From NCBI GenBank assembly GCA_964594215.1, contig CAZQLN010000003.1, forward strand, positions 25,447-89,446: a DNA stretch of 64,000 nucleotides, written 5' to 3'. This document shows positions 1 through 14,418 of this stretch, in pieces. Positions within the stretch are counted from its first letter, which is position 1, and each line of letters begins with the position of its first letter. This DNA comes from an uncultured Bdellovibrionales bacterium. GTDB taxonomy: Bacteria; Patescibacteriota; Minisyncoccia; Moranbacterales; UBA1568. A model generated the notes under the pieces. The model saw only the letters and a program-made list of their open reading frames with translations. It was not told the DNA's origin and made no database searches. The translations under genes were made by a program, and so were the position numbers.

Positions 1-812
1 CAGCTAAGCGACCAAATGGCTACACTTTGTATCGTGGTGATATCCGTGACGCCAAACTTCTTGATAAAATTTTCAAGAAAGAAAAGATTGATAAAGTAGT
101 GCATCTGGCTGCTATGGCAGGAGTACGTTATTCTCTGACCAACCCAAGCCTTTATGTTGATGTCAATATAGTAGCCACTACTAAACTTCTTGACCGGGCT
201 GTCGCCTATAAAATCAAGAACTTTGTCTATGCCTCATCTTCTTCAGTGTATGGCAACAACACCAAGGTACCCTTTTCTGAAACTGATCCAGTCGACACAC
301 CTATCTCACCGTATGCAGCGACTAAGAAGGCGGATGAACTTATCGCTCATGTGTATAGTCATATCTATAAGCTTCCGACTACGGGTCTGCGCTTCTTTAC
401 TGTCTATGGACCATGGGGCAGACCGGATATGGGAGTTTTCAAATTTATCGAGAATATAATCCGTGGGAAAACTATTGAAGTCTACAACCATGGCAACATG
501 CGTCGTAACTTCACATACATTGATGATATCGTAGCTGGTGTTTTGACTACACTAGATGCTGACCTATCTTACGCCATAATGAATATCGGAGGAGATAGAG
601 ATGAAGCTCTCCTCGACTACATTGCTCTTGTAGAGAAACACACTGGCAAAAAATCCAAACAAAAACTAATGCCGATGCAGCCAGGTGATGTACCGAGTAC
701 AGTAGCTGATATCCGCCAATTACGTAAGTTGGGATGGAAACCTACTACGCGGATAGAAAAGGGTATTAAAAATTTTGTTGATTGGTACAAAGAATATTTC
801 AAGGTGCAATAA
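1..812 (+). CDS. NAD-dependent epimerase/dehydratase (nucleotide-sugar 4-epimerase-like), 5'-truncated at window edge
   Basis: Reading frame is open from the window start (…NGYTLYRGDIRD…). Extended-SDR motifs are present: YASSSSVYG and the catalytic YAATK (YxxxK). Confidence 0.8.
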   Translation, partial: AKRPNGYTLYRGDIRDAKLLDKIFKKEKIDKVVHLAAMAGVRYSLTNPSLYVDVNIVATTKLLDRAVAYKIKNFVYASSSSVYGNNTKVPFSETDPVDTPISPYAATKKADELIAHVYSHIYKLPTTGLRFFTVYGPWGRPDMGVFKFIENIIRGKTIEVYNHGNMRRNFTYIDDIVAGVLTTLDADLSYAIMNIGGDRDEALLDYIALVEKHTGKKSKQKLMPMQPGDVPSTVADIRQLRKLGWKPTTRIEKGIKNFVDWYKEYFKVQ

Positions 813-813
813 T

Positions 814-1536
814 ATGGATCTACTCACACTTAATAATTTAACCAAAACCTACGAAAATGAAGGTGTAGAAACCCGAGCTCTGGTAGGGGCTACGTTTCGT
901 GTGAAGCAGGGAGAATTCGTTGCTATTATGGGCCCATCGGGATCGGGTAAATCTACCTTGATGCAGATCTTGGGTCTTCTTGATCGTTCAACGGGGGGTA
1001 CCTATGAACTTTCTGGTATCAATGTGGAGAAACTTCCTGATGACGAGCTTGCTATCCTTCGTAACGAAAGAATCGGATTTGTTTTCCAGGCCTTTAATCT
1101 TCTGCCACGGACGACAGTAGCTGAAAACGTTGAGTTGCCACTCCTATATAGTAATAAGTCCACAGGGAACGATAAGGAAAAAGTAGACAGAGCGCTTCTT
1201 TCGGTAAGTATGGAGCATCGTCGAGATTACCTTTCAAACCAGCTTTCCGGTGGGGAGAAACAGCGTGTAGCGATTGCAAGAGCCTTAGTTAATGATCCAG
1301 ACATTATTTTTGCTGATGAACCAACTGGAAATTTAGATTCCAAAGCCGGTCTTCAGGTGATGCGCATACTCCAGATGGCACATCTGGAGGGTAAAACTAT
1401 CATTCTTGTCACACATGAGACTGCTACGGCTGAACATGCCGAACGTATTTTGCGTATGCATGATGGAGAAATAGTGGCTGACGAACAGGTATTGCAAAGA
1501 CGCAATGCTCTCGATGCTACTGACCTCATCAAATAA
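814..1536 (+). CDS. ABC transporter ATP-binding protein (MacB/LolD/FtsE-like)
   Basis: Walker [10 protein letters not shown], signature [15 protein letters not shown], Walker [16 protein letters not shown] at 814 directly follows the stop of the upstream gene; the track ORF at 775 is an in-frame upstream extension. Confidence 0.9.
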
Positions 1537-1537
1537 T

Positions 1538-2779
1538 ATGAAAATCACTGGTCCGCTTCGCATAGCCTATAATTCACTTCTCTCAGCTAAGCTGCGTTTT
1601 TTCTTGACAGTTCTCGGGATCATTATTGGGGTGGCAGCAGTGATCATGGTGATGGGTATTGGAGCGAGTGCTCAAGAGTTAGTTTTATCCCAAGTCAAAA
1701 AAGTGGGTTCTGATCTTATCGGCATCCTTCCGGGAGCTTCCGAGGAAGATGGTCCACCAGCCTCGGCTTTTGGTGTTGTCACCACCACTTTTGTAAACAG
1801 TGATCTTGAAAAAATACGTGAACGATCTAATGCCCCTCATCTCGTAGCGGTATCAGGGTATGTTTCAGGGAGTGCTACTCTTGAGACTAAACGAGATAAT
1901 CGAGAGGTGAGTTATCAAGGAGTCTCTCCAGATATGATAGCGGTAGAGAGCATTGATGTGCAGGCGGGAAGATTTTTCTTAGATGATGAAGAGAAAGATC
2001 TTTCTCGAGTCATTGTGTTGGGTGCCAATCGAGCCAAAGAATTTTTCCCCAATGGAGATGCCGTAGGACAAACAGTGAAACTCAAAGACACTCCTTTTCA
2101 GGTGATTGGAGTGCTTGAAGAGCGTGGCTCGACCGCTTTTTCAAGTCCAGATGATTATGTCTATGTACCTCTGGTGACGGCTCAGAAGCTACTCTTAGGC
2201 ATTAATTATCTTAACTTCGCTCGGGCTAAGGTGGATGATGTGGCTAATATAGAACGTAGCCGGGCAGATGTGACAGCTCTCCTTCGTCGAGAGCATGATC
2301 TTGATGATGACGAAGAGTCTGACTTTTCAGTCAGGAGTACAGCCGCTGCTCTTGGAGCACTTACGTCTATTACAGATATCTTGAAGTATTTCCTGATTGC
2401 TATCGCTTCGCTATCTCTATTGGTCGGTGGTATAGGGATTATGAACTCAATGCTTATCTCAGTATCGCAGCGTGTTCGAGAAATCGGTCTTCGCAAAGCG
2501 GTAGGGGCTAGACCCAAACACATTATCGCCCAGTTTCTTATCGAATCTATTTTTATCACCCTGTGTGGTGGAATCATCGGCATTATTTTTGGAGTGGGGC
2601 TGACTTTTGTGGCAAGTCTCATTATCATTCGACTTGGTTATGAATGGCAGTTTTTCGTACCAGTAATCTCACTTGTTCTTGGTTTCGGGGTATCACTGTG
2701 TATTGGTCTCATCTTTGGTATCTATCCAGCGCTCAAAGCATCTAAGGTGAGTGCTATGGAAGCTCTTCGTTATGAGTAA
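1538..2779 (+). CDS. ABC transporter permease, FtsX/MacB family (N-terminal TM, large extracytoplasmic domain, C-terminal 3-TM FtsX domain)
   Basis: Topology and the conserved C-terminal FtsX-type segment (…MNSMLISVSQRVREIGLRKAVGA…). ATG at 1538 follows the ATPase stop. Confidence 0.85.
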   Translation: MKITGPLRIAYNSLLSAKLRFFLTVLGIIIGVAAVIMVMGIGASAQELVLSQVKKVGSDLIGILPGASEEDGPPASAFGVVTTTFVNSDLEKIRERSNAPHLVAVSGYVSGSATLETKRDNREVSYQGVSPDMIAVESIDVQAGRFFLDDEEKDLSRVIVLGANRAKEFFPNGDAVGQTVKLKDTPFQVIGVLEERGSTAFSSPDDYVYVPLVTAQKLLLGINYLNFARAKVDDVANIERSRADVTALLRREHDLDDDEESDFSVRSTAAALGALTSITDILKYFLIAIASLSLLVGGIGIMNSMLISVSQRVREIGLRKAVGARPKHIIAQFLIESIFITLCGGIIGIIFGVGLTFVASLIIIRLGYEWQFFVPVISLVLGFGVSLCIGLIFGIYPALKASKVSAMEALRYE

Positions 2780-2782
2780 TTT

Positions 2783-4036
2783 ATGAAAAAAACTTTGCAA
2801 TCATTGCGTTTCGCCTTCCGTACAGTAGGCTCACACAAGCCTCGTACAGCCCTTGCCCTTCTCGGAGTGATGATCGGCGTGTTTTCGGTAGTGGTAGTAA
2901 TGGCTCTGGGGAACGGTGTCAAAAATTTTGTTCTAGGCCAAGTAGAAAGTTTTGGAACAGACTTGATTCAAGTAGAAGTTAAGGTACCGAATACAGGCAC
3001 TTTCTCTAATGATAATGCTTCATCAAGGACCCAAGGTACCCAGATAACTACACTCCTTCTTGATGACAAAGATGAGATTAAGAAATTACCGAATATTCTT
3101 GCGGCTTATGGAGGAACCATTGGTCAGGAACGAGCCACGAGTGGTTCTATTGGCAAACGTATCTTATTGTTTGGAGCGAGTAGTGAGGTGGCTTTAGTAG
3201 ATCAAAAAGCAACCTTAGCTGAAGGAAGATTTTATACTGAGGAAGAAGATGCAAGTCAGGCTCGAGTGGTAGTTTTGGGTCACAGTGTTAAAGAAACATT
3301 TTTTGGAGCAGGGAGCGCTATTGGTGAGAGTATTACCATGAAAGGTGAGAAGTACCGAGTAGTAGGGGTACTTGAGAGTCGTGGGTCGGCTGGCTTTTTC
3401 GATCTTGATAGTTTAGCCTATGTGCCGGCCGAAACTCTCCAGAAGAAAATTTTGGGTGTGGATTATGTGCAGATGATTTCGGTACGAATGAAGGATGCTT
3501 CCAAAGAAGAGGAAGCAGTAGCTGATATAGTAGCTTTGCTTCGTAAACGACATGATATTACTCATCCAGACAAAGATGATTTTTCAGTCACCTCTACCAA
3601 ACAAGCTCAGGAAACCCTCGGAGATGTATTGGGCTCACTGACTATTCTGTTACTGGCATTGACCTCTATCGCATTGGTAGTGGGGGGCGTGGGTATCATG
3701 AATGTCATGTATGTTTCAGTTGCTGAGAGAACCAGTGAAATTGGTCTCCGGAAGGCTTTGGGAGCTACCTCACAAGATATTCTGACTCAATTTCTTTTTG
3801 AAGCTCTTATTATTACTTTACTTGGAGGTGTTATTGGTATCATTCTCGGAATAGGGGCCTCTCTAGGTTTGTCAGCTATTTTTCAGGCTCTTGGTTTTGC
3901 TTTTAAGCTTCAATTCACTTGGACCGCCCTCTTCCTTGGTGCCCTTTTTTCACTTATTGTGGGTGTTATTTTTGGTTTAGCTCCGGCCTATCGTGCGGCT
4001 AAACTTTCACCTATGGAGGCTTTACGGAAGGATTAA
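2783..4036 (+). CDS. ABC transporter permease, FtsX/MacB family (second paralog)
   Basis: Same architecture as the previous gene; …MNVMYVSVAERTSEIGLRKALGA… FtsX motif; 3-nt intergenic gap. Confidence 0.85.
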   Translation: MKKTLQSLRFAFRTVGSHKPRTALALLGVMIGVFSVVVVMALGNGVKNFVLGQVESFGTDLIQVEVKVPNTGTFSNDNASSRTQGTQITTLLLDDKDEIKKLPNILAAYGGTIGQERATSGSIGKRILLFGASSEVALVDQKATLAEGRFYTEEEDASQARVVVLGHSVKETFFGAGSAIGESITMKGEKYRVVGVLESRGSAGFFDLDSLAYVPAETLQKKILGVDYVQMISVRMKDASKEEEAVADIVALLRKRHDITHPDKDDFSVTSTKQAQETLGDVLGSLTILLLALTSIALVVGGVGIMNVMYVSVAERTSEIGLRKALGATSQDILTQFLFEALIITLLGGVIGIILGIGASLGLSAIFQALGFAFKLQFTWTALFLGALFSLIVGVIFGLAPAYRAAKLSPMEALRKD

Positions 4037-4086: not shown

Positions 4087-4392
4087 ATGAACATGCAACT
4101 ATCAGTTCAAGGAAATCCTCTCATAGAGGAACTTGATTTGCCGATGGGAATCGAATGGCGCTTGCAAGCTGAGTACGGTATAACCCATGTGCGACAATTA
4201 CGGGCTTTTCCAAGGCTACGCCTTAGCCATCACGGCTTTCAGATATCTGAAATTGCTATTTTGGAAGATATGCTCCACAAGAAGGGTCTATATATGATCA
4301 ATCTGACTGGCGCAGAAAAAGTGGCTCTGGCAAGATACACTCAAGAAAGAAAGGGGAACGATGTCACAATTTTCCACACTACGGAAACCTGA
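4087..4392 (+). CDS. small protein with RNA polymerase alpha-subunit C-terminal-domain-like (helix-hairpin-helix) fold, copy 1
   Basis: Segment …LDLPMGIEWRLQAEYGITHVRQLRAFPRLRLSHHGFQISEIAILEDMLHKKGL… follows the alpha-CTD pattern (L.L…N.L…GI.t…L…l…G…ei…L…G). Confidence 0.5.
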   Translation: MNMQLSVQGNPLIEELDLPMGIEWRLQAEYGITHVRQLRAFPRLRLSHHGFQISEIAILEDMLHKKGLYMINLTGAEKVALARYTQERKGNDVTIFHTTET

Positions 4393-4594
4393 CCGGCTTC
4401 AGCCTGGCGAGGAAAATATTGGCCTCATTCAAGGTTTTCCATCAGGAGATGTCTTGAAATTGAAAAAAGCTGGTGTATTCACGATAAACCAGTTGAAGAC
4501 CAAAACAGGGAAGGAAATCAAAAGCATTGGACTAGAAGTCAGAAAACTCGAAGTTTTTCTGGCTCGTAGAGGCTATAATATTACTTTCGCGTGA
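4361..4594 (+). CDS. small alpha-CTD-like HhH protein, copy 2 (start uncertain; overlaps copy 1 by 32 nt in another frame)
   Basis: …GDVLKLKKAGVFTINQLKTKTGKEIKSIGLEVRKLEVFLARRGYNI… is the closest match of the three to the RpoA CTD consensus. Confidence 0.5.
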   Translation: MSQFSTLRKPDRLQPGEENIGLIQGFPSGDVLKLKKAGVFTINQLKTKTGKEIKSIGLEVRKLEVFLARRGYNITFA

Positions 4595-4613
4595 AACTGT
4601 AGGAGAAAAATAG

Positions 4614-4838
4614 ATGTCACAAAACGATGAGCGGCAACTTACGAGTCGGGATGCTATCTATAAGCTGGGGCAGTTGCCTCAGGAGGAATGTAATACGCTG
4701 AGGAATCTCGGCCTGTCGCATATTGCAGATCTAGACCATATCAGTGTCGAGGATTTGGAAGGAGCGGGTGTGAGTCCGATAATCATCGGGATGCTCAATG
4801 AGCGTCTTGAGCATCACGGTTTCAATCCAGTTTTGTAA
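4614..4838 (+). CDS. small alpha-CTD-like HhH protein, copy 3
   Basis: …CNTLRNLGLSHIADLDHISVEDLEGAGVSPIIIGMLNERLEHHGF… shares the HHGF tail motif with copy 1. Confidence 0.5.
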   Translation: MSQNDERQLTSRDAIYKLGQLPQEECNTLRNLGLSHIADLDHISVEDLEGAGVSPIIIGMLNERLEHHGFNPVL

Positions 4839-4851
4839 GAGGGAATAGGGT

Positions 4852-4890
4852 CTCGGTGTGCAGCGCACGCCGGGAGCCTTTTTTTATACA
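4852..4890 (+). terminator. putative intrinsic terminator after the alpha-CTD-like gene triplet
   Basis: Imperfect GC-rich hairpin cggtgtgc-agc-gcacgccg followed by a T7 run. Confidence 0.45.
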
Positions 4891-5486: not shown

Positions 5487-7139
5487 ATGCTTACCATCAA
5501 AAATATTCAAAAAAATGTCGGCGGGCAGAGGGTCTTAAATAAGGCCTCTTTTTCATTGGGTGAGGGTCAGCGAGCTGCTCTGATTGGCCTTAATGGCGTA
5601 GGTAAATCGACCTTACTGAAAATTATTGCTGGTATTGAAGAGCCGAATATTGGCAAAGTGATGAAGCCAAACCGAGTGCTTATGGGGTACCTTCCACAGG
5701 AGGCAGTCGCTGATAAGGATATGACATTAGCACTGTATCTACGAGAAATGGCTGGTCTTGGAGCTATTGAGACTGAACTCAAAACCCTTGAAGTTAAACT
5801 TGCGCTACCAGAAGTTCAGGAAAAGTATGATACTCTCATGGCCGAGTTTGAACGTCTTGGCGGTTATGAATTTGATCGACGGATTCAGAAAGTAGTGACA
5901 GGTCTCCGTATCAAGCACCTGGCTCCCGATCGCTCAATTCTGACTCTTTCTGGTGGAGAGCGTCGTAAGATTGCTCTAGCTGGAGTGTTGCTTCGAGGAG
6001 TAGACCTTCTTCTTCTTGATGAACCGACAAATAACCTCGACCTACCAGCTCTTACTTTCTTAGAGAATTGGTTGAAGAATAGCAAAACCACTTGTCTTAT
6101 TGCCTCTCATGATCGCCGTTTCCTTGATAGTGTTGTTACCAAAGTCATTGAGATTGATTGGTATCGTCGTGATACAGAAATCTTTGCGGGTAATTGGAGT
6201 CAGTTTATGGAAACCAAAGAACATGCCAGACGTCGTCTCAAAGAGCAGTACCGTCTTCAAGAAGAAGAACGAGCACGACTTACTTCATCGAAAGATGAAA
6301 AGATTGATTGGGTCACTCGAGTATGGGATAAGAAGAAGCGAGATAATGATAAGCAAGCCGATCATTTCAAAAAAGAACGAGCTGCCAAAAAATTCTCAGC
6401 CTCAGCCAGAGCTCTCGAAGGTCGTGAAAAGCGTTTGAATAAACTTGATAAACCAGTAGAAAAAGAGCCGCTGGAACTTGAGTTTGTAGAACCTCAAGAA
6501 ATCGAAGGTTCATACGATATTGTTTTCAGTTCCTTGGTTGCCGGTTATGGCACTGACTTTTCTGTTGGACCTATTGATTGGGAAATAACTTACGGCCAAA
6601 AAGTAGCCTTGCTTGGTGACAATGGTGTTGGCAAAACAACTCTTCTTAAAACTTTGGCTTCCGAATTGAAACCTTTATCTGGACAACTTATAGTTGGCGC
6701 AGAAGTACGTATGGGTTATCTTATTCAAGAACATGACCTCTTGCTTCAGAATGAGAATATGACTCTCGATGCTTACCTCAAGAAACGTCTATCATTTGAG
6801 CTTCATGAGAGCATCGGTACTCTGGTAGGTATTTATCAGCTTTCCCCGTTGTTCCTTGGTCATAAAATGAAGCATCTTTCACCAGGTGAACGTGTCCGCG
6901 TCCTTCTGTTGATCCTTGTGGAACAAAAAGCGAACTGTTTAATTCTCGATGAACCGACAAACCATCTGGATCTGGAATCTATCGAGGCTTTCGAGGAAGC
7001 GCTTAATGCTTTTCCGGGTACAGTTATTCTTGTTACTCATGATCGGATGTTTCTTGAGAGGATTCATTTAGATCAAAAAATGAAACTAGAGAATGGCCAG
7101 CTAGTCCCAGTTCTCGATACAGCTTTACCCAAAGAATAG
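5487..7139 (+). CDS. ABC-F family ATPase (two tandem ABC domains, no TM domain; EttA/Uup-like translation factor)
   Basis: Two Walker A (GLNGVGKST, GDNGVGKTT), two signatures (LSGGERRKIALAGVL, LSPGERVRVLLLIL) and two Walker B (LLLLDEPTNNLD, CLILDEPTNHLD). A charged linker lies between the domains. Confidence 0.85.
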   Translation: MLTIKNIQKNVGGQRVLNKASFSLGEGQRAALIGLNGVGKSTLLKIIAGIEEPNIGKVMKPNRVLMGYLPQEAVADKDMTLALYLREMAGLGAIETELKTLEVKLALPEVQEKYDTLMAEFERLGGYEFDRRIQKVVTGLRIKHLAPDRSILTLSGGERRKIALAGVLLRGVDLLLLDEPTNNLDLPALTFLENWLKNSKTTCLIASHDRRFLDSVVTKVIEIDWYRRDTEIFAGNWSQFMETKEHARRRLKEQYRLQEEERARLTSSKDEKIDWVTRVWDKKKRDNDKQADHFKKERAAKKFSASARALEGREKRLNKLDKPVEKEPLELEFVEPQEIEGSYDIVFSSLVAGYGTDFSVGPIDWEITYGQKVALLGDNGVGKTTLLKTLASELKPLSGQLIVGAEVRMGYLIQEHDLLLQNENMTLDAYLKKRLSFELHESIGTLVGIYQLSPLFLGHKMKHLSPGERVRVLLLILVEQKANCLILDEPTNHLDLESIEAFEEALNAFPGTVILVTHDRMFLERIHLDQKMKLENGQLVPVLDTALPKE

Positions 7140-7891: not shown

Positions 7892-10800
7892 ATGAAATAT
7901 ACCCTCAATTTTAAAGAACTTGGGAAGAATGATGCTCTGGTAGCGGGAGGTAAGGGAGCATCTCTTGGAGAGATGATTCGGGCTGGTATTCCTGTGCCAG
8001 ATGGGTTTGTGATTTTAGCTGATACATTTGATCTCTTTCTCAAGGAGACGGACTTGTTACAGGAAATTGAGGCTATCTTAGACGGTGTTAATCATGAAGC
8101 TATTCATACAGTAGAAGCTGCCTCTGAGAGTATTCAAGGGCTGATACTTTCACGGCCCATACCAGAAGTGATACAGAAAGAGATTCAAGAAAAATTTGCG
8201 GATCTTGGAAGTCAATATGTTGCGGTTCGTAGTAGCGCTACAGCAGAAGATGGTATCGAGCACGCCTGGGCTGGCCAACTGGATAGTTATCTTAATACCA
8301 CAGAAAGAGACTTAATAGAAAAGGTACGTAAGTGTTGGGCTTCGCTTTTTACGCCGCGAGCTATATTTTACCGTTTTGAAAAAGGGCTTCATAGTACCAA
8401 AATCTCTGTGGCCGTAGTAGTGCAGAGTATGGTCAATAGCGAAAAGTCAGGCATTGCTTTTTCAGTTCATCCAGTCACAGAGGATTATAATCAACTGATT
8501 ATTGAAGCTGGTTTTGGTTTGGGTGAGGCGATTGTATCTGGCGCAGTGACACCCGATAGTTATGTGGTAGAAAAATCACCATGGAAGATTCTTGATATAA
8601 ATATCAGTCATCAAGGAAGGGCTCTTTATCGTATTGATGGTGGCGGGAATGAGTGGCGAGACTTGGGAGAATCCTTTGGGAGTAATAAAGTATTAAATGA
8701 GGCACAAATCCAAGAGCTTTCAGATATTATTGTGCAGATTGAAAAACACTACGGTTTTCCATGTGATATTGAATGGGCTTTTGAAGACGGAAAATTCTTT
8801 ATAGTACAAAGCCGTCCAATTACTACTCTTAGTACAAAAGGAAACATAAACTTACAGAAGATAGAAAAAATCTTTTCTCGTGATTTTACGATGATCGCTC
8901 TAGAAATGGACTATCGTATGGAATACCAACGGGCTCGTCCTTGGGCTAAAGGAGAGAATCCGTATTCTCCGTACTTAGTTTTCTGGCGGAATGATGGGAC
9001 AAATAAAATTTACTTCAATTCAAAGGGAGTGGAGTGGATTCAGAGGGAGTTAGAGAAAAGAGTTCGAGAGAATAAGGATTTCCTGAAACTGGTAGAAGAA
9101 AATGTCAGGAAGGGAATTTCCTATATTAGGCCTGTTTATGAGGCGGAGAAAGCTATTGATCGAGAAAGCTTGATTCGATTTGTGGAGGAATTTATGGCGG
9201 CTTACTTCTGGATAGAGGCAATGTGGTGGATTAAGGGGATGGCTGACGAAAATCTTAAGGATATTGATTGTGCAAATATCGTGAGACTTCGAGAAGAAAC
9301 AGAGACACTTTCCGCCGCTACCGATAGAGTTATCCGTAAATCATTAGAAAAACTTTATCCGAAACTTGGTTTACTTTCAGCCATGATTTCTTTTGATGAG
9401 CTTAAAGGCGGAAATATTCCATCTGAAGAAGTACTAAGAACCAGAGATCAAGGCTTTGTTCTTATCAACAACGAAATTATCATTGATAAAAACTTTGATG
9501 ATGTTCTTAAAGAAAATGGATTGGAGTTAGTCGAGGAATCATTTCAGATGTTAGGTGAAGAATTAGAAGGACAGTCAGCTAGTAAGGGAAGGTACACTGG
9601 AAGAGTAGTGAGAGTAATGGGACATAACGACTTTGAAAAAGTTCAGGAAGGAGATGTATTAGTTTCACCAATGACTATGGTGGACTTTCTTCCTGTTATG
9701 AAAATAGCAGGAGCTTTTGTGACTGATGAAGGCGGAGCCCTCTGTCACGCTGCTATTGTGGCGCGTGAACTTGATAAGCCTTGTATTATAGGTACCAAGG
9801 TAGCTACGCAAGTATTTAAAGATGGAGACCTTATAGAGGTGGATGCTGATAATGGTGTGGTGAGGATTTTGGAAAAAGCGGAGGAATTAGAGATAGGTAA
9901 CTATCAAAAACTTTTCCAGTGGCCAGGAGAGTTTTCACATTTTCTCTCGTCTTACTTTATGGCCATATACAACAAGCACAAGGCCATCTCTTTGCATGAT
10001 GGAAACATGTGGCAGAGTTTCTTGCCGTATACATCAAAGGAAAAAACGCTTAAGTTAGGATTAGCACTGTATTCTTCTAAACAAGAGTATGAGGAATTGA
10101 GAAAAGGTCTGACAGAAGGCTTTGTAGAGCTTACTGCCCACTTCAATCAGGTACTGAAAAAAGATACCCTTACAAAAGAAGAAGTGGGGGCCTTCTTTGA
10201 TCAGGCATTAGAACACTACAACTATTACTCTCAAACAGAATTTTTCTTTACCGATCTTGCGTACTCTGAAATGAATAACGTTTCACAAATTCAAAAGAAC
10301 TTTGAAACTTTTGATGAATTGAAATTACAGGGCAGAGAATACTTGAATAAAATTGCATTAGCTCCAGGTTGTTACCTTGATAGGCTCATTGAGAAAATTG
10401 CACAGCAACTGAGTTATGACATTAGTGCCCTTAAGTGTCACTCTATTAATGAGATTCTGGAGTTGTTTGATGGAAAGAGTGTGAAGTCGGACGAACTGGT
10501 AAACAGAAATCAATACTTCATGCATGGGAGAGGATCTCATGCGGAGGTGCTTACCGGGGATACAGCCTTGAGAAAAATCCGTGACTTTTTTGCAGAAGTG
10601 GCTAAAACAAATGAAGTGAAGGGGCAAATTGCTAACAAAGGCTACTATCAGGGGCGTGCAAGGGTTTTTCGATTTTCTCTTTCAGAAATTAATTTGATGG
10701 ATGAAGAGATTGAGAAAATGGAGAAAGGGGAAATACTCATAGCGGATACTACAGCACCAGAAATTATTCTTGCTTGCAAGAAGGCTGGCGCGATTGTCAC

Positions 10801-10951
10801 CAATCAAGGAGGGATGATGTCTCACGCGGCTATTGTCGCCCGTGAACTAGGTATTCCCTGTATAGTAGGGACAGGGCATATAACAGAAATAGTGAAGACG
10901 GGAGATTTGTTAGAAGTAGATGCTGATAATGGGGTAGTAAGAATTTTATAA
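7892..10951 (+). CDS. PEP-utilizing-enzyme family protein, rifampin-phosphotransferase/PEP-synthase-like: N-terminal PPDK_N ATP-grasp domain plus two tandem (helical domain + phosphohistidine swivel domain) modules; no PEP-utilizers_C TIM barrel
   Basis: PPDK_N-like N-terminus (…VAVRSSATAEDG…, …CDIEWAFEDGKFFIVQSRPIT…). Two swivel motifs GGALCHAAIVARELDKPCIIGT and GGMMSHAAIVARELGIPCIVGT, each preceded by roughly 270 aa of helical region. Confidence 0.75.
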   Translation: MKYTLNFKELGKNDALVAGGKGASLGEMIRAGIPVPDGFVILADTFDLFLKETDLLQEIEAILDGVNHEAIHTVEAASESIQGLILSRPIPEVIQKEIQEKFADLGSQYVAVRSSATAEDGIEHAWAGQLDSYLNTTERDLIEKVRKCWASLFTPRAIFYRFEKGLHSTKISVAVVVQSMVNSEKSGIAFSVHPVTEDYNQLIIEAGFGLGEAIVSGAVTPDSYVVEKSPWKILDINISHQGRALYRIDGGGNEWRDLGESFGSNKVLNEAQIQELSDIIVQIEKHYGFPCDIEWAFEDGKFFIVQSRPITTLSTKGNINLQKIEKIFSRDFTMIALEMDYRMEYQRARPWAKGENPYSPYLVFWRNDGTNKIYFNSKGVEWIQRELEKRVRENKDFLKLVEENVRKGISYIRPVYEAEKAIDRESLIRFVEEFMAAYFWIEAMWWIKGMADENLKDIDCANIVRLREETETLSAATDRVIRKSLEKLYPKLGLLSAMISFDELKGGNIPSEEVLRTRDQGFVLINNEIIIDKNFDDVLKENGLELVEESFQMLGEELEGQSASKGRYTGRVVRVMGHNDFEKVQEGDVLVSPMTMVDFLPVMKIAGAFVTDEGGALCHAAIVARELDKPCIIGTKVATQVFKDGDLIEVDADNGVVRILEKAEELEIGNYQKLFQWPGEFSHFLSSYFMAIYNKHKAISLHDGNMWQSFLPYTSKEKTLKLGLALYSSKQEYEELRKGLTEGFVELTAHFNQVLKKDTLTKEEVGAFFDQALEHYNYYSQTEFFFTDLAYSEMNNVSQIQKNFETFDELKLQGREYLNKIALAPGCYLDRLIEKIAQQLSYDISALKCHSINEILELFDGKSVKSDELVNRNQYFMHGRGSHAEVLTGDTALRKIRDFFAEVAKTNEVKGQIANKGYYQGRARVFRFSLSEINLMDEEIEKMEKGEILIADTTAPEIILACKKAGAIVTNQGGMMSHAAIVARELGIPCIVGTGHITEIVKTGDLLEVDADNGVVRIL

Positions 10952-10957
10952 AATACT

Positions 10958-12058
10958 ATGAGTAAGCGACCAGAAGATTACAAAAAGTTTTTTACAGCAG
11001 AATGTGAGATTACTTGTTTGCATTGTGATTTTCTCATGCGTCAGAGCCCACTCGCTGCTGCAGACTTGCTGGCTTTCAATAAGGGCTTAGAGTTTCATGT
11101 TTTCTTGCGCAAGGATAAAGAATACCGTTGTGCTGAAGAAGGGATCGAGCTTTTCTTTGATCAAGAACGGTATGAGATTTTTCTGAGAGATTTCCAGGCC
11201 TATGCAGATGAGGCTCTGAGTGTTTTTGTACCAAAGTGGAGCAAAATTCCGACAACTCTTTCCAAAGAAGAATTTATTGAAGCAGCAAATTTTCTCGGCA
11301 AATTGTGGTATTTCTATGGTTTTACAGAGTTTCCTTTTATTGATAAAGCCTATGAAAAAGCCAAAGCAGAGAGTAATGCAGAAGTCCAGAAACGACTAGA
11401 AGATTTTGGGCAGTTTAAATTCACAGGCCGTGAAGTATTGAATGCTTTTTGGTTTGAGGGTGGTCCGATACCGAACATCCTCCTCGGTGTTTCCCAGATG
11501 TTTCTTAAAGATGATGATGCCAAGTTTCTCTTTCTTGCTGAGCTTACAGCGTTGTTTGATGGATGGCGCCCAACTGAGGAATTAGTGAAAGAGCGGAGAG
11601 AATACTATGGTATGAATGTCACGGACGGCGTAGCGGAAGTATTGGGCTTTACACAAGCCAAAGAACTATACGTACAATTTACCCGAGTACCAGATGATTT
11701 GGTAATAAAAGGCGTGACTGCCAATAAAGGAAAGGTCACCGGAAGGGTAATTATCGCCCCTATGCTCAATGACCATGGAGCCATTGCTCTGCTTGATGCT
11801 AAAATGAAGCAAGGAGATATCTTGGTAGCAGAAAGTACAAGTCCAGATTTGATGTCCTTGTGTCGTAAGGCATCGGCCATAGTAGCTGATCAAGGGGGAC
11901 TGCTCTCTCATGCTGCAATTGTGTCTCGGGAACTTGGTGTACCTTGTGTGATCCAGGCGGAGGTTGCTACTCGGAGATTGAAAGAAGGGGACCTGGTAGA
12001 GGTGGATGCGGATAAAGGTTTCGTTACTATTTTAGAAAGGATAGAAGAAGGCATATAA
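10958..12058 (+). CDS. standalone (helical domain + PEP-utilizing-enzyme swivel phosphohistidine domain) protein; third module paralogous to those in the upstream gene
   Basis: C-terminal GGLLSHAAIVSRELGVPCVIQ. N-terminal region shares blocks with the upstream modules (WYFYGFTEFPFIDKAY vs YNYYSQTEFFFTDLAY; FKFTGREVLNAF vs LKLQGREYLNKI). Confidence 0.7.
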   Translation: MSKRPEDYKKFFTAECEITCLHCDFLMRQSPLAAADLLAFNKGLEFHVFLRKDKEYRCAEEGIELFFDQERYEIFLRDFQAYADEALSVFVPKWSKIPTTLSKEEFIEAANFLGKLWYFYGFTEFPFIDKAYEKAKAESNAEVQKRLEDFGQFKFTGREVLNAFWFEGGPIPNILLGVSQMFLKDDDAKFLFLAELTALFDGWRPTEELVKERREYYGMNVTDGVAEVLGFTQAKELYVQFTRVPDDLVIKGVTANKGKVTGRVIIAPMLNDHGAIALLDAKMKQGDILVAESTSPDLMSLCRKASAIVADQGGLLSHAAIVSRELGVPCVIQAEVATRRLKEGDLVEVDADKGFVTILERIEEGI

Positions 12059-12741: not shown

Positions 12742-14418
12742 ATGAGACGTGAACACAAAATCCGCTGGCAATTCGCGGCCGTGCTCCTTTTGGGGCTCGT
12801 GTCCGGGCTTATTGCATATCCAAAAGCCATTTCTTTTTTCCCAGCTGGCTACAATTGGCTCAATCAATTACAAGTAAACCGGGGACTTGATCTTGAGGGA
12901 GGTATTCACTTGGAATATGCTGCTGATACTTCGAATATAGCTAAGGATAAAGAAAAAGATGCTCTTCAAGCAGCTGAGGCAGTCATCGAGCGACGCGTCA
13001 ATGCTTTTGGTGTGGGTGAACCATTGGTTCAGCTCTCGAAAGCAGGGAGTGAAAATCGTATCATTGTAGAGCTGCCTGGTATTAAAAATATTGAAGAAGC
13101 CAAGGCGCTGATCAAAGAAACCCCATTTCTTGAATTTCGTGAGCCAGCGAGTGATGAGTTCAAGGCGCAGTTAGCCCAAGATAATGAAAAAGCTCGTGCT
13201 CAAGCGGAAACTATTTTGAATCGTGCTAAGAGCGGTGAAGATTTTTCGAAATTGGCTACCGAGTTCAGTCAGGATCCTGGTTCCAAAAATCAGGGCGGAG
13301 AATTGGATTTCGTGAAAAAAGGTGCTTTTGTTCCAGAATTTGATGAAACCATTTTCCGGGCAGATTTTCCAAAGGGTAAGATCAATGACTCTCTTATCGA
13401 AACTGACTATGGTTACCATATTATCAAGAAACTAGATGAACGAGGTGAGGGAGATGATCGAGAGGTCAAGGCGGCCCACATTCTTTTTCTCAAGAAATCT
13501 ATTGAAACCGACCCACTCTTAGCGTATCAACCAACCGGACTTTCTGGTAAAAACCTCAAAGACGCTTCGGTAACCTATCAGTCGCAAGGATTGGGGTCGC
13601 CACAGATTCAGTTACAGTTTGACGATGAAGGAACAAAATTGTTTGCAGATATTACGAAGCGTAATGTAGGTAAGCCGGTTGCTATTTTTCTTGATAATGA
13701 ACTCCTTCAGGCACCGGTTATTCAAGTAGAAATTCCAAATGGTCAGGCAGTGATCACGGGAGATTACACTATCACTGAAGCCAATGCTCAGGTAAAACGC
13801 CTCAACGAAGGAGCGTTGCCTGTACCGATCAATTTGGTTGGTCAGCAAAGTGTCGATGCCTCTTTGGGTGAAGTCGCATTGAGTCAGAGTCTTAAAGCTG
13901 GCTTTATCGGTCTGGTGGCGGTTGCTCTTTTCATGTTGCTCTTCTATCGTTTCCTCGGTCTTATTGCTGTTTTGGCACTTATCCTCTACACAGCGATGCT
14001 TTTCTCACTTTTCAAACTTTCTGTGCTCACACCATTTCCGATCACGGTGACTCTCTCTGGTATCGCTGGGTTTATTCTCTCAATTGGTATTGCGGTGGAT
14101 GCTAATGTGCTTATTTTCGAACGTACTCGCGAAGAACTCTCATACGGTAAGGGGGCTATCAAATCGATTAAGGAGGGTTTCCGTCGAGCCTGGCCAAGTA
14201 TTCGTGATGGTCATGTCTCGACTCTTCTCACCACCTTTATTCTCGTAGGTTTGGGAACGGGCTTCGTCAAAGGTTTCGCAATTATTCTCGCCTTAGGTGT
14301 GTTGCTCTCTCTCTTTACAGCGGTAGTTTTGGTGCGTACGACTACCACTTTCTTCATTGGAGAGTGGATGGAAAAACATCCATGGCTACTTGTTACTCCT
14401 AAGAAACCTATCGAATAG
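12742..14418 (+). CDS. secD: protein translocase subunit SecD carrying an inserted parvulin-like PPIase segment
   Basis: SecD hallmarks (LDLEGG, IIVELPGIKNIEEAKALIKETPFLEFRE, P1-head, six C-terminal TMs with DANVLIFER). Insert at about aa 135-250: GEDFSKLATEFSQDPGSKNQGGELDFVKKGAFVPEFDETIF…DYGYHIIKK…AAHILF. Confidence 0.85.
   Translation: MRREHKIRWQFAAVLLLGLVSGLIAYPKAISFFPAGYNWLNQLQVNRGLDLEGGIHLEYAADTSNIAKDKEKDALQAAEAVIERRVNAFGVGEPLVQLSKAGSENRIIVELPGIKNIEEAKALIKETPFLEFREPASDEFKAQLAQDNEKARAQAETILNRAKSGEDFSKLATEFSQDPGSKNQGGELDFVKKGAFVPEFDETIFRADFPKGKINDSLIETDYGYHIIKKLDERGEGDDREVKAAHILFLKKSIETDPLLAYQPTGLSGKNLKDASVTYQSQGLGSPQIQLQFDDEGTKLFADITKRNVGKPVAIFLDNELLQAPVIQVEIPNGQAVITGDYTITEANAQVKRLNEGALPVPINLVGQQSVDASLGEVALSQSLKAGFIGLVAVALFMLLFYRFLGLIAVLALILYTAMLFSLFKLSVLTPFPITVTLSGIAGFILSIGIAVDANVLIFERTREELSYGKGAIKSIKEGFRRAWPSIRDGHVSTLLTTFILVGLGTGFVKGFAIILALGVLLSLFTAVVLVRTTTTFFIGEWMEKHPWLLVTPKKPIE

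Follow-up and report, generated by a model that had tools for sequence, protein, structure and literature searches.

What do three short, consecutive open reading frames (ORFs) of an uncultured bacterium encode, and are they genes at all? They lie on the + strand within positions 4087-4838 of the window, by which we mean the whole stretch of 64,000 nucleotides (nt) that was analyzed (contig CAZQLN010000003.1, positions 25,447 to 89,446). A first-pass annotation had read them as a tandem triplet in three different frames, 101, 77 and 74 amino acids (aa) long, with a 32-nt overlap of the first two copies. Each was thought to encode nothing but a domain resembling the C-terminal domain of the RNA polymerase (RNAP) alpha subunit (alpha-CTD), a bundle of two helix-hairpin-helix motifs, (HhH)2. 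The coordinates were confirmed, and we refer to the ORFs as genes A, B and C:

4087-4392, + strand: gene A (ORF1), 101 aa in frame 1, or 99 aa from a likelier start at 4093
4361-4594, + strand: gene B (ORF2), 77 aa in frame 2
4614-4838, + strand: gene C (ORF3), 74 aa in frame 0

On comparative evidence, A, B and C are genuine, separately translated small genes and neither chance ORFs nor an assembly frameshift. They are, as judged from profiles, diverged paralogues, each essentially one predicted (HhH)2 domain with no other domain attached. The proposed alpha-CTD identity held for B and C, which are alpha-CTD-like by profile-profile comparison. For gene A it could be reached only indirectly, and direct assignment to PF03118, the Pfam family of the alpha-CTD, failed: none of the three is a member by Pfam's own threshold. 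We are confident of this structural and evolutionary description overall.

Exact or near-exact copies of the three proteins were found in NCBI, JGI, ENA and Logan assemblies. Six independent contigs (L003-L008) with approximately 93% DNA identity to the window contained the same three ORFs and the same 32-nt overlap (4361-4392), and the A-B-C order after the same permease pair was kept in three more diverged lineages (L001/L002, L009). The suggested synteny check thus recovered the A-B-C layout in related genomes, together with a lone C-type gene at the position between an epimerase and a NUDIX gene in two distant loci (L011, L012). The L009 record is a metagenome-assembled genome labelled 'uncultured Bdellovibrionales', and this label is not confirmed. 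Shine-Dalgarno-like sequences were present 7 nt 5' of the second ATG of gene A (GAGAGG, ATG at 4093), 5' of the gene B start at 4361 (AGGGG) and 5' of the gene C start at 4614 (TAGGAG). We consider 4093 the likelier start of gene A because of the GAGAGG and because several related contigs call the gene from the equivalent ATG, yielding 99 aa.

Ratios of nonsynonymous to synonymous substitution (dN/dS, Nei-Gojobori method) between the window and the L001/L002 and L009 lineages were 0.19-0.33 for gene A, 0.07-0.44 for gene B, 0.16-0.23 for gene C, and 0.015-0.04 for the adjacent permease. As these values are well below 1, all three genes are under purifying selection. Their protein sequences change 5-10 times faster than that of the neighboring permease (28-59% identity to orthologues, compared to 92% for the permease). 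The recurrence of the layout at 93% DNA identity, the diverged orthologues, the low dN/dS, and the ribosome-binding sites together argue that the genes are real.

The family as a whole is very rare: about 15 billion proteins contained it in very few lineages. From a library of 1.84 billion representative proteins, a C-family profile returned only three 50%-identity clusters, and word-index searches of 5.8 billion clusters yielded close relatives only. Pattern scans for the C family in genome and metagenome contig collections added one new locus (L009) and one duplicate.

The kinship of the three proteins was visible in profile comparisons only. In BLASTP they were barely similar pairwise, and essentially the only match was a coincidental HHGF. 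This motif had been reported as a tail shared by two of the ORFs, and it turned out to occupy non-homologous positions. In gene A (residues 48-51) it lies mid-protein, at the second hairpin, where A2, a second domain found in gene A orthologues, has 'AAGF' and gene C has 'GAGV'. In gene C (residues 67-70) it comes after the last helix, opposite 'KKGL' of gene A and 'SRGL' of the E. coli alpha subunit in the alignments. Among the window's 513 six-frame ORFs, A, B and C were one another's top cross-matches, and no fourth copy was present. Comparisons by hhalign gave E-values of 3.5e-5 between A1 (the domain retained in gene A) and A2 (57 columns), 6.5e-7 between A2 and C, and 1.5e-4 between B and C.

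The link to the alpha-CTD was provided by two kinds of search. The C-family profile was run by HMMER against the 1.84 billion proteins and retrieved its own orthologues, the distant 65-68 aa orthologues P0013 and P0015 (E approximately 5e-4), and P0012, a protein of 1024 aa (library-wide E 2.6e-5). PF03118 matches seven stretches of P0012 (E 2.2e-50); taken singly, its repeats score 53, 34 and 26 bits on PF03118, its canonical repeats match HHH_5 and HHH, and the repeat closest to gene C scores 19.9 bits over nearly the full PF03118 model. It was the only significant match that was not an orthologue: P0010, P0011 and P0014 also came in at E <= 0.001 and look spurious, P0014 being a BspA-type leucine-rich-repeat protein, P0010 having no meaningful Pfam match and P0011 appearing repetitive by eye. 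In hhalign, gene B matched a reference of four RpoA CTDs (only that of E. coli verified) at 89.9% (E 1.7e-6) and the P0012 repeats at 81.9% (E 1.1e-5); the C family matched the RpoA CTDs at 58.7% (E 9.5e-5), and A2 matched the P0012 repeats at 65% (E 6e-5). These alignments share one register, and reversed-sequence controls gave E >= 0.01 (E >= 0.04 for gene B) and never exceeded 4%.

Structure models were built with AlphaFold and rated by the predicted local distance difference test (pLDDT). Gene C was modeled with five helices at a mean pLDDT of 68. When its model was searched against the viral models of BFVD, the top matches were small phage proteins annotated 'RNA polymerase, alpha subunit, C-terminal' (probability 0.94-0.95). 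We read gene C as a short N-terminal tail (DERQLT) followed by one predicted five-helix alpha-CTD-like domain, and gene B as a basic N-terminal arm with one such domain, in which the second hairpin is shortened by 3-4 residues. Residues 1-13 of gene C (window 4614-4650) are predicted to be disordered (pLDDT < 50), yet DERQLT-RD is invariant across close lineages, which suggests that the tail is a short linear docking motif.

Several observations weigh against an alpha-CTD identity. The proposed HMMER test against PF03118 was negative at E <= 10 for all three window ORFs and for their L002 and L009 orthologues. No member of the family reached the PF03118 gathering threshold of 23.8 bits, the best being the distant C orthologue P0013 (18.2 bits, E 0.002), and the scores of C orthologues on the SAM-domain model PF22931 are slightly above any member's score on PF03118. 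Neither phmmer nor the C-family profile found RpoA among PDB sequences, where only chance matches to xanthine oxidase appeared (E approximately 0.5). The highest hhalign value, 96.8% (E 2.5e-10) between the C family and the PF03118-verified repeats of P0012, is post hoc, as it was the C search that brought up P0012; the library-wide 2.6e-5 is the value to go by. A1 gave 0.2-3% against RpoA CTDs or repeats, which is not significant, and the makeup of the RpoA reference is a further weakness. The gene C model was derived from a four-sequence alignment and is of moderate confidence. Foldseek ranked alpha-CTDs first among PDB structures for this model (TM-score 0.61-0.68) at E-values of 0.4-2; these fall short of significance, which is common for domains of this size. 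The gene A model (five-sequence alignment, pLDDT 42.7) was unusable and was excluded from the fold search. For gene A, the alpha-CTD likeness accordingly extends by transitive homology through A2 only.

Gene A differs from its relatives in length. Its orthologues are two-domain proteins of 154 aa (L002) and 148 aa (L009), whose first approximately 85 residues align with the window protein and are followed by A2, which is missing from the window. The window protein consists of the single domain A1 (approximately residues 12-70), a short linker, and an out-of-frame tail of 11 residues overlapping gene B: homology extends to approximately residue 89, and the 11 codons after it run across the gene B start. 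The N-terminus of gene B is kept (RLQPGEENIGLIQGFP in the window, RRIGPETNLGMLQDFP in the relatives). The simplest reading of the alignments is that A2 was lost by a deletion of approximately 200 nt in the window's lineage, although the direction of the event, loss or gain, was inferred without an outgroup, which also counts against our account. Because the relatives' gene A carries the second domain, the window gene would be a truncated derivative and not a frameshift artefact. In a separate locus (L001:137-600) the two-domain gene A is itself split by a frameshift into 78 and 71 aa, while its nearly identical counterpart in L002 is whole, with 154 aa; the split is either an assembly error or early pseudogenization.

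How the array arose is suggested by the two distant loci L011 and L012. On these long contigs a glycosyltransferase, an epimerase, a single C-type gene (encoding P0013 and P0015), a NUDIX hydrolase, an ABC-F protein, SecD and SecF follow one another, and there is no ABC transporter, no gene A and no gene B. The flanking proteins are 50-62% identical to those of the window, and gene C approximately 42%. A G+C-rich terminator hairpin is also found 3' of the single gene in L011. Of the three genes, C is conserved best, and it alone has syntenic orthologues in more distant lineages. Because these relatives keep a C-type gene alone at the epimerase-NUDIX position, gene C would be ancestral and syntenically fixed between the NDP-sugar epimerase and the NUDIX hydrolase. 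Tandem duplication in the window's clade would then have produced A1-A2, B and C next to an inserted MacB-type ABC transporter, and the window's lineage would have lost A2, leaving gene A with an out-of-frame tail that runs 32 nt into gene B. The synteny points to A1, A2 and B being lineage-specific paralogues. Since L011 and L012 lack the transporter together with A and B, the tie to the transporter appears recent and may be incidental. Some close relatives carry an additional small gene after gene C, gene D (64 aa; L001:1124-1318 and L009:6238-6432), which has weak coiled-coil/trimerization-motif matches and no relationship to A, B or C. Gene D is missing from the window, where the terminator lies directly 3' of gene C.

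Do the proteins bind DNA as the alpha-CTD does? The E. coli alpha-CTD contacts UP-element DNA through the '265 determinant', R265, N268, C269, G296, K298 and S299. In the hhalign alignments the R265 position is occupied by E, S, T or A in gene C and by G or a deletion in gene B. N268 is kept in the window's gene C only and is not conserved among its orthologues; the K298 and S299 positions hold I, T or A in gene C and are deleted in gene B; G296, in gene B, is the one residue retained. No copy conserves the equivalents of R265, N268, K298 and S299. With these contact residues missing, binding of DNA in the alpha-CTD manner is improbable, and the suggestion that the free-standing modules act as UP-element decoys is weakened; contacts with proteins would be the likelier mode of action. 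The charges of the proteins are polarized: isoelectric points in the window are 10.2 for gene B and 4.75 for gene C (approximately 10 and 4.5 in all lineages), gene C has a net charge of about -7 to -9, and gene A is near neutral in the window. Gene B combines a lysine-rich first hairpin (KLKKAG, KTKTGK) with a conserved basic N-terminal arm.

We hypothesize that A, B and C would act as small modules for protein interaction and pair with one another, basic B with acidic C, in the manner of the acidic repeat AR2 of NusA and the alpha-CTD. This reading follows from the bare interaction fold, the fast evolution under purifying selection and the opposite charges of B and C. They may in addition engage some part of the transcription machinery and so modulate that machinery, without taking the place of the alpha-CTD. 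The hetero-association mechanism taken alone is tentative, while the favored explanation as a whole (paralogous alpha-CTD-like genes, their expansion and a role as interaction modules) seems to us somewhat more probable than its negation. The narrower proposal that the three form a hetero-oligomer of alpha-CTD mimics docking on an activator, NusA-AR2, sigma region 4 or RNAP is speculative, and we would not expect it to be correct.

Could the proteins be something other than alpha-CTD relatives? They might be bacterial SAM-like oligomerization modules with no link to transcription, their alpha-CTD likeness reflecting a shared SAM-like fold class. The only direct matches of the window ORFs were indeed weak ones to SAM-like models and to the Dmc1 N-terminal domain, and ORF1 matched no Pfam family: ORF3 scored 14.3 and ORF2 14.2 bits on SAM_TNK (PF22931) and SAM_EPH (PF22993) models, whose cut-offs are 25 and 27, and the L002 C orthologue came within a tenth of a bit on PF22931 (24.9 bits, cut-off 25, E 2e-5). 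Such cross-matches are nevertheless expected for alpha-CTD-like sequences, because the bona fide alpha-CTD-repeat protein P0012 also matches SAM_EPH, SAM_2 and SAM_TNK. The one significant non-orthologous match of the C profile in the whole library was this multi-PF03118 protein, gene B aligns to the RpoA CTD at 90%, and SAM domains ranked below the alpha-CTD in all three structure searches. Where sequence links are significant, they point to PF03118-type repeats and not to SAM families. We regard the SAM interpretation as distinctly unlikely. A role as HhH proteins that bind nucleic acids non-specifically, in the manner of nucleoid-associated proteins or DNA/RNA chaperones, with basic B as the binding surface, is also unlikely, if marginally less so. 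Binding to the DNA backbone is common for the (HhH)2 fold, and the high isoelectric point of gene B, its lysine-rich hairpin and basic arm, and the weak Dmc1 N-terminal HhH match would all fit. Gene C is strongly acidic and gene A near neutral in the window, however, the second hairpin of gene B is shortened and lacks K298/S299 equivalents, and HMMER searches of all A, B and C proteins against Pfam and NCBIfam matched no HhH family (PF00633, PF14520, PF12836).

Two further readings deny the genes their independence. The first-pass annotation had left open that the ORFs are pieces of a frameshifted larger gene, and they could in principle be decaying fragments of one multi-repeat gene, whether a pseudogene or a frameshift artefact. 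They occupy three frames with an overlap, the 148-154 aa orthologues of ORF1 are longer than ORF1 itself, whose tail is out of frame, gene A of L001 is itself split, and multi-repeat alpha-CTD proteins such as P0012 exist. This is very improbable. In every lineage B and C stand apart, each with a start codon and a ribosome-binding site of its own, the layout and overlap recur in six independent assemblies, dN/dS is well below 1 for all three genes, and distant relatives have a lone C gene of 65-68 aa. Hardly credible is a split alpha subunit, in which the true alpha-CTD of the organism would be one of these copies, standing apart from a truncated rpoA. No observation directly favors it. The R265, N268, K298, S299 determinant is absent from all copies, and fast evolution with a copy number that varies between close relatives is unlike a core RNAP part. 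In tblastn, no rpoA was found in the window or the compared loci, and there is no alpha-N-terminal-domain-like sequence in the window. A programmed +1 frameshift fusing A to B in the overlap was considered and set aside as speculation: there is no recognizable slippery site, and gene B has its own ribosome-binding site. A toxin-antitoxin pair was also rejected, since no toxin-like domain is present and all members have one fold. PADLOC and PHROGs models gave no match with E < 0.07, hence no link to a phage or defense family.

The closest known relative of the paralogous alpha-CTD-like genes is the CTD of RpoA (PF03118, SCOP a.60.3). It ranks first among structural matches of ORF3, though at PDB E-values that are not significant, and among profile matches of ORF2. 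On this reading both are compact two-HhH bundles of approximately 60 residues, with helix pattern and hydrophobic core in register (L..L......L....I..I..L......L...G....I...L...G-hydrophobic). The window genes differ in being free-standing (74-101 aa, with their own start and stop) and untethered to an alpha N-terminal domain, in falling under the Pfam threshold, in not conserving the DNA-contact residues, and in the acidity of ORF3 and the shortened second hairpin of ORF2. Alpha-CTD-type domains outside RpoA also occur in P0012 and in phage proteins annotated 'RNA polymerase, alpha subunit, C-terminal', such as that of Rhodococcus phage Finch (A0A2P1JY10). These proteins pass PF03118 or carry its annotation, and each comes from a single gene, be it one of 111-240 aa or that of the long repeat protein. 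Unlike A, B and C, they do not form a tandem array of single-domain genes, separately translated and diverged from one another, in a housekeeping region of a chromosome. The acidic repeats AR1 and AR2 differ in being part of the large NusA, and their structural match ranks below the alpha-CTD. P0012 is odd in itself. Encoded at L013:5001-8075 (ENA ERZ26050812, contig ctg27374_5x_l) and adjoining an OmpA-domain gene, it combines a hydrophobic N-terminus resembling a signal peptide with nine or more alpha-CTD-like repeats in tandem (seven PF03118 stretches), canonical and divergent types alternating; it is possibly a secreted protein built from RNAP alpha-CTD modules.

The first-pass annotation had not recognized a tandem triplet from any characterized system. 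The kind itself is not new, as the domain is known and free-standing alpha-CTD-annotated phage proteins exist; literature searches on free-standing alpha-CTD proteins found nothing relevant, and no experimental study of the phage proteins or of P0012. New here are a very divergent chromosomal sub-family under the Pfam threshold, a tandem array of separately translated paralogues, and a copy number that shifts between close relatives. The present result is mainly a gain in annotation, turning three 'hypothetical' ORFs into predicted alpha-CTD-like (HhH)2 proteins. If they do act on the transcription machinery, they would show that duplication of the alpha-CTD interaction module can give bacteria free-standing regulators, which would offer a simple route to titrate or re-route contacts between activators and RNAP. 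Should the hetero-oligomer of alpha-CTD mimics exist, it would represent an undescribed class of small, fast-evolving transcription modulators that consist of duplicated alpha-CTD modules throughout and whose copy number varies between close lineages. Close relatives with one, three or four copies provide a natural experiment for dissecting the role of each copy.

The array stands in the following setting:

775-4036, + strand: MacB-type ABC ATPase and two FtsX/MacB-type permeases, upstream of gene A
4851-4884, + strand: intrinsic-terminator-like hairpin (4851-4875; 11 pairs, 7 of them G-C) and T-run

An NDP-sugar epimerase/dehydratase also lies upstream, with the MacB-type transporter genes; downstream are a NUDIX hydrolase, an ABC-F protein and a GDSL lipase. 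The locus does end with its own terminator, as had been noted: the hairpin and T-run close the A-B-C unit 5' of the NUDIX gene. No promoter-like site was found in the 50 nt that separate the end of the permease from gene A, and the transporter genes are for this reason probably co-transcribed with the A-B-C unit.

Other genes of the window deserve a brief description. The ABC-F protein (5487-7139), two genes downstream of the array and kept in position in L011 and L012, scores above the NCBIfam cut-off for 'ribosomal protection-like ABC-F' (396 vs. 380 bits). SecD (558 aa, 12742-14418) contains a peptidyl-prolyl isomerase domain (Rotamase, PF00639/PF13616) between SecD_1st and the P1 head, as read from precomputed Pfam matches of the 92%-identical L003 copy and of the L011 and L012 homologues; this fusion is unusual. 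A 1019-aa protein resembling phosphoenolpyruvate (PEP) synthase and PEP-utilizing enzymes (7892-12058) has a duplicated C-terminal swivel/mobile domain region, scores far under all NCBIfam equivalog cut-offs, that of rifamycin phosphotransferase included, and is followed by a 366-aa protein with another swivel/mobile domain. Nearly all ORFs of at least 150 aa between positions 1 and 47500 are on the + strand, an unusually long co-directional run.

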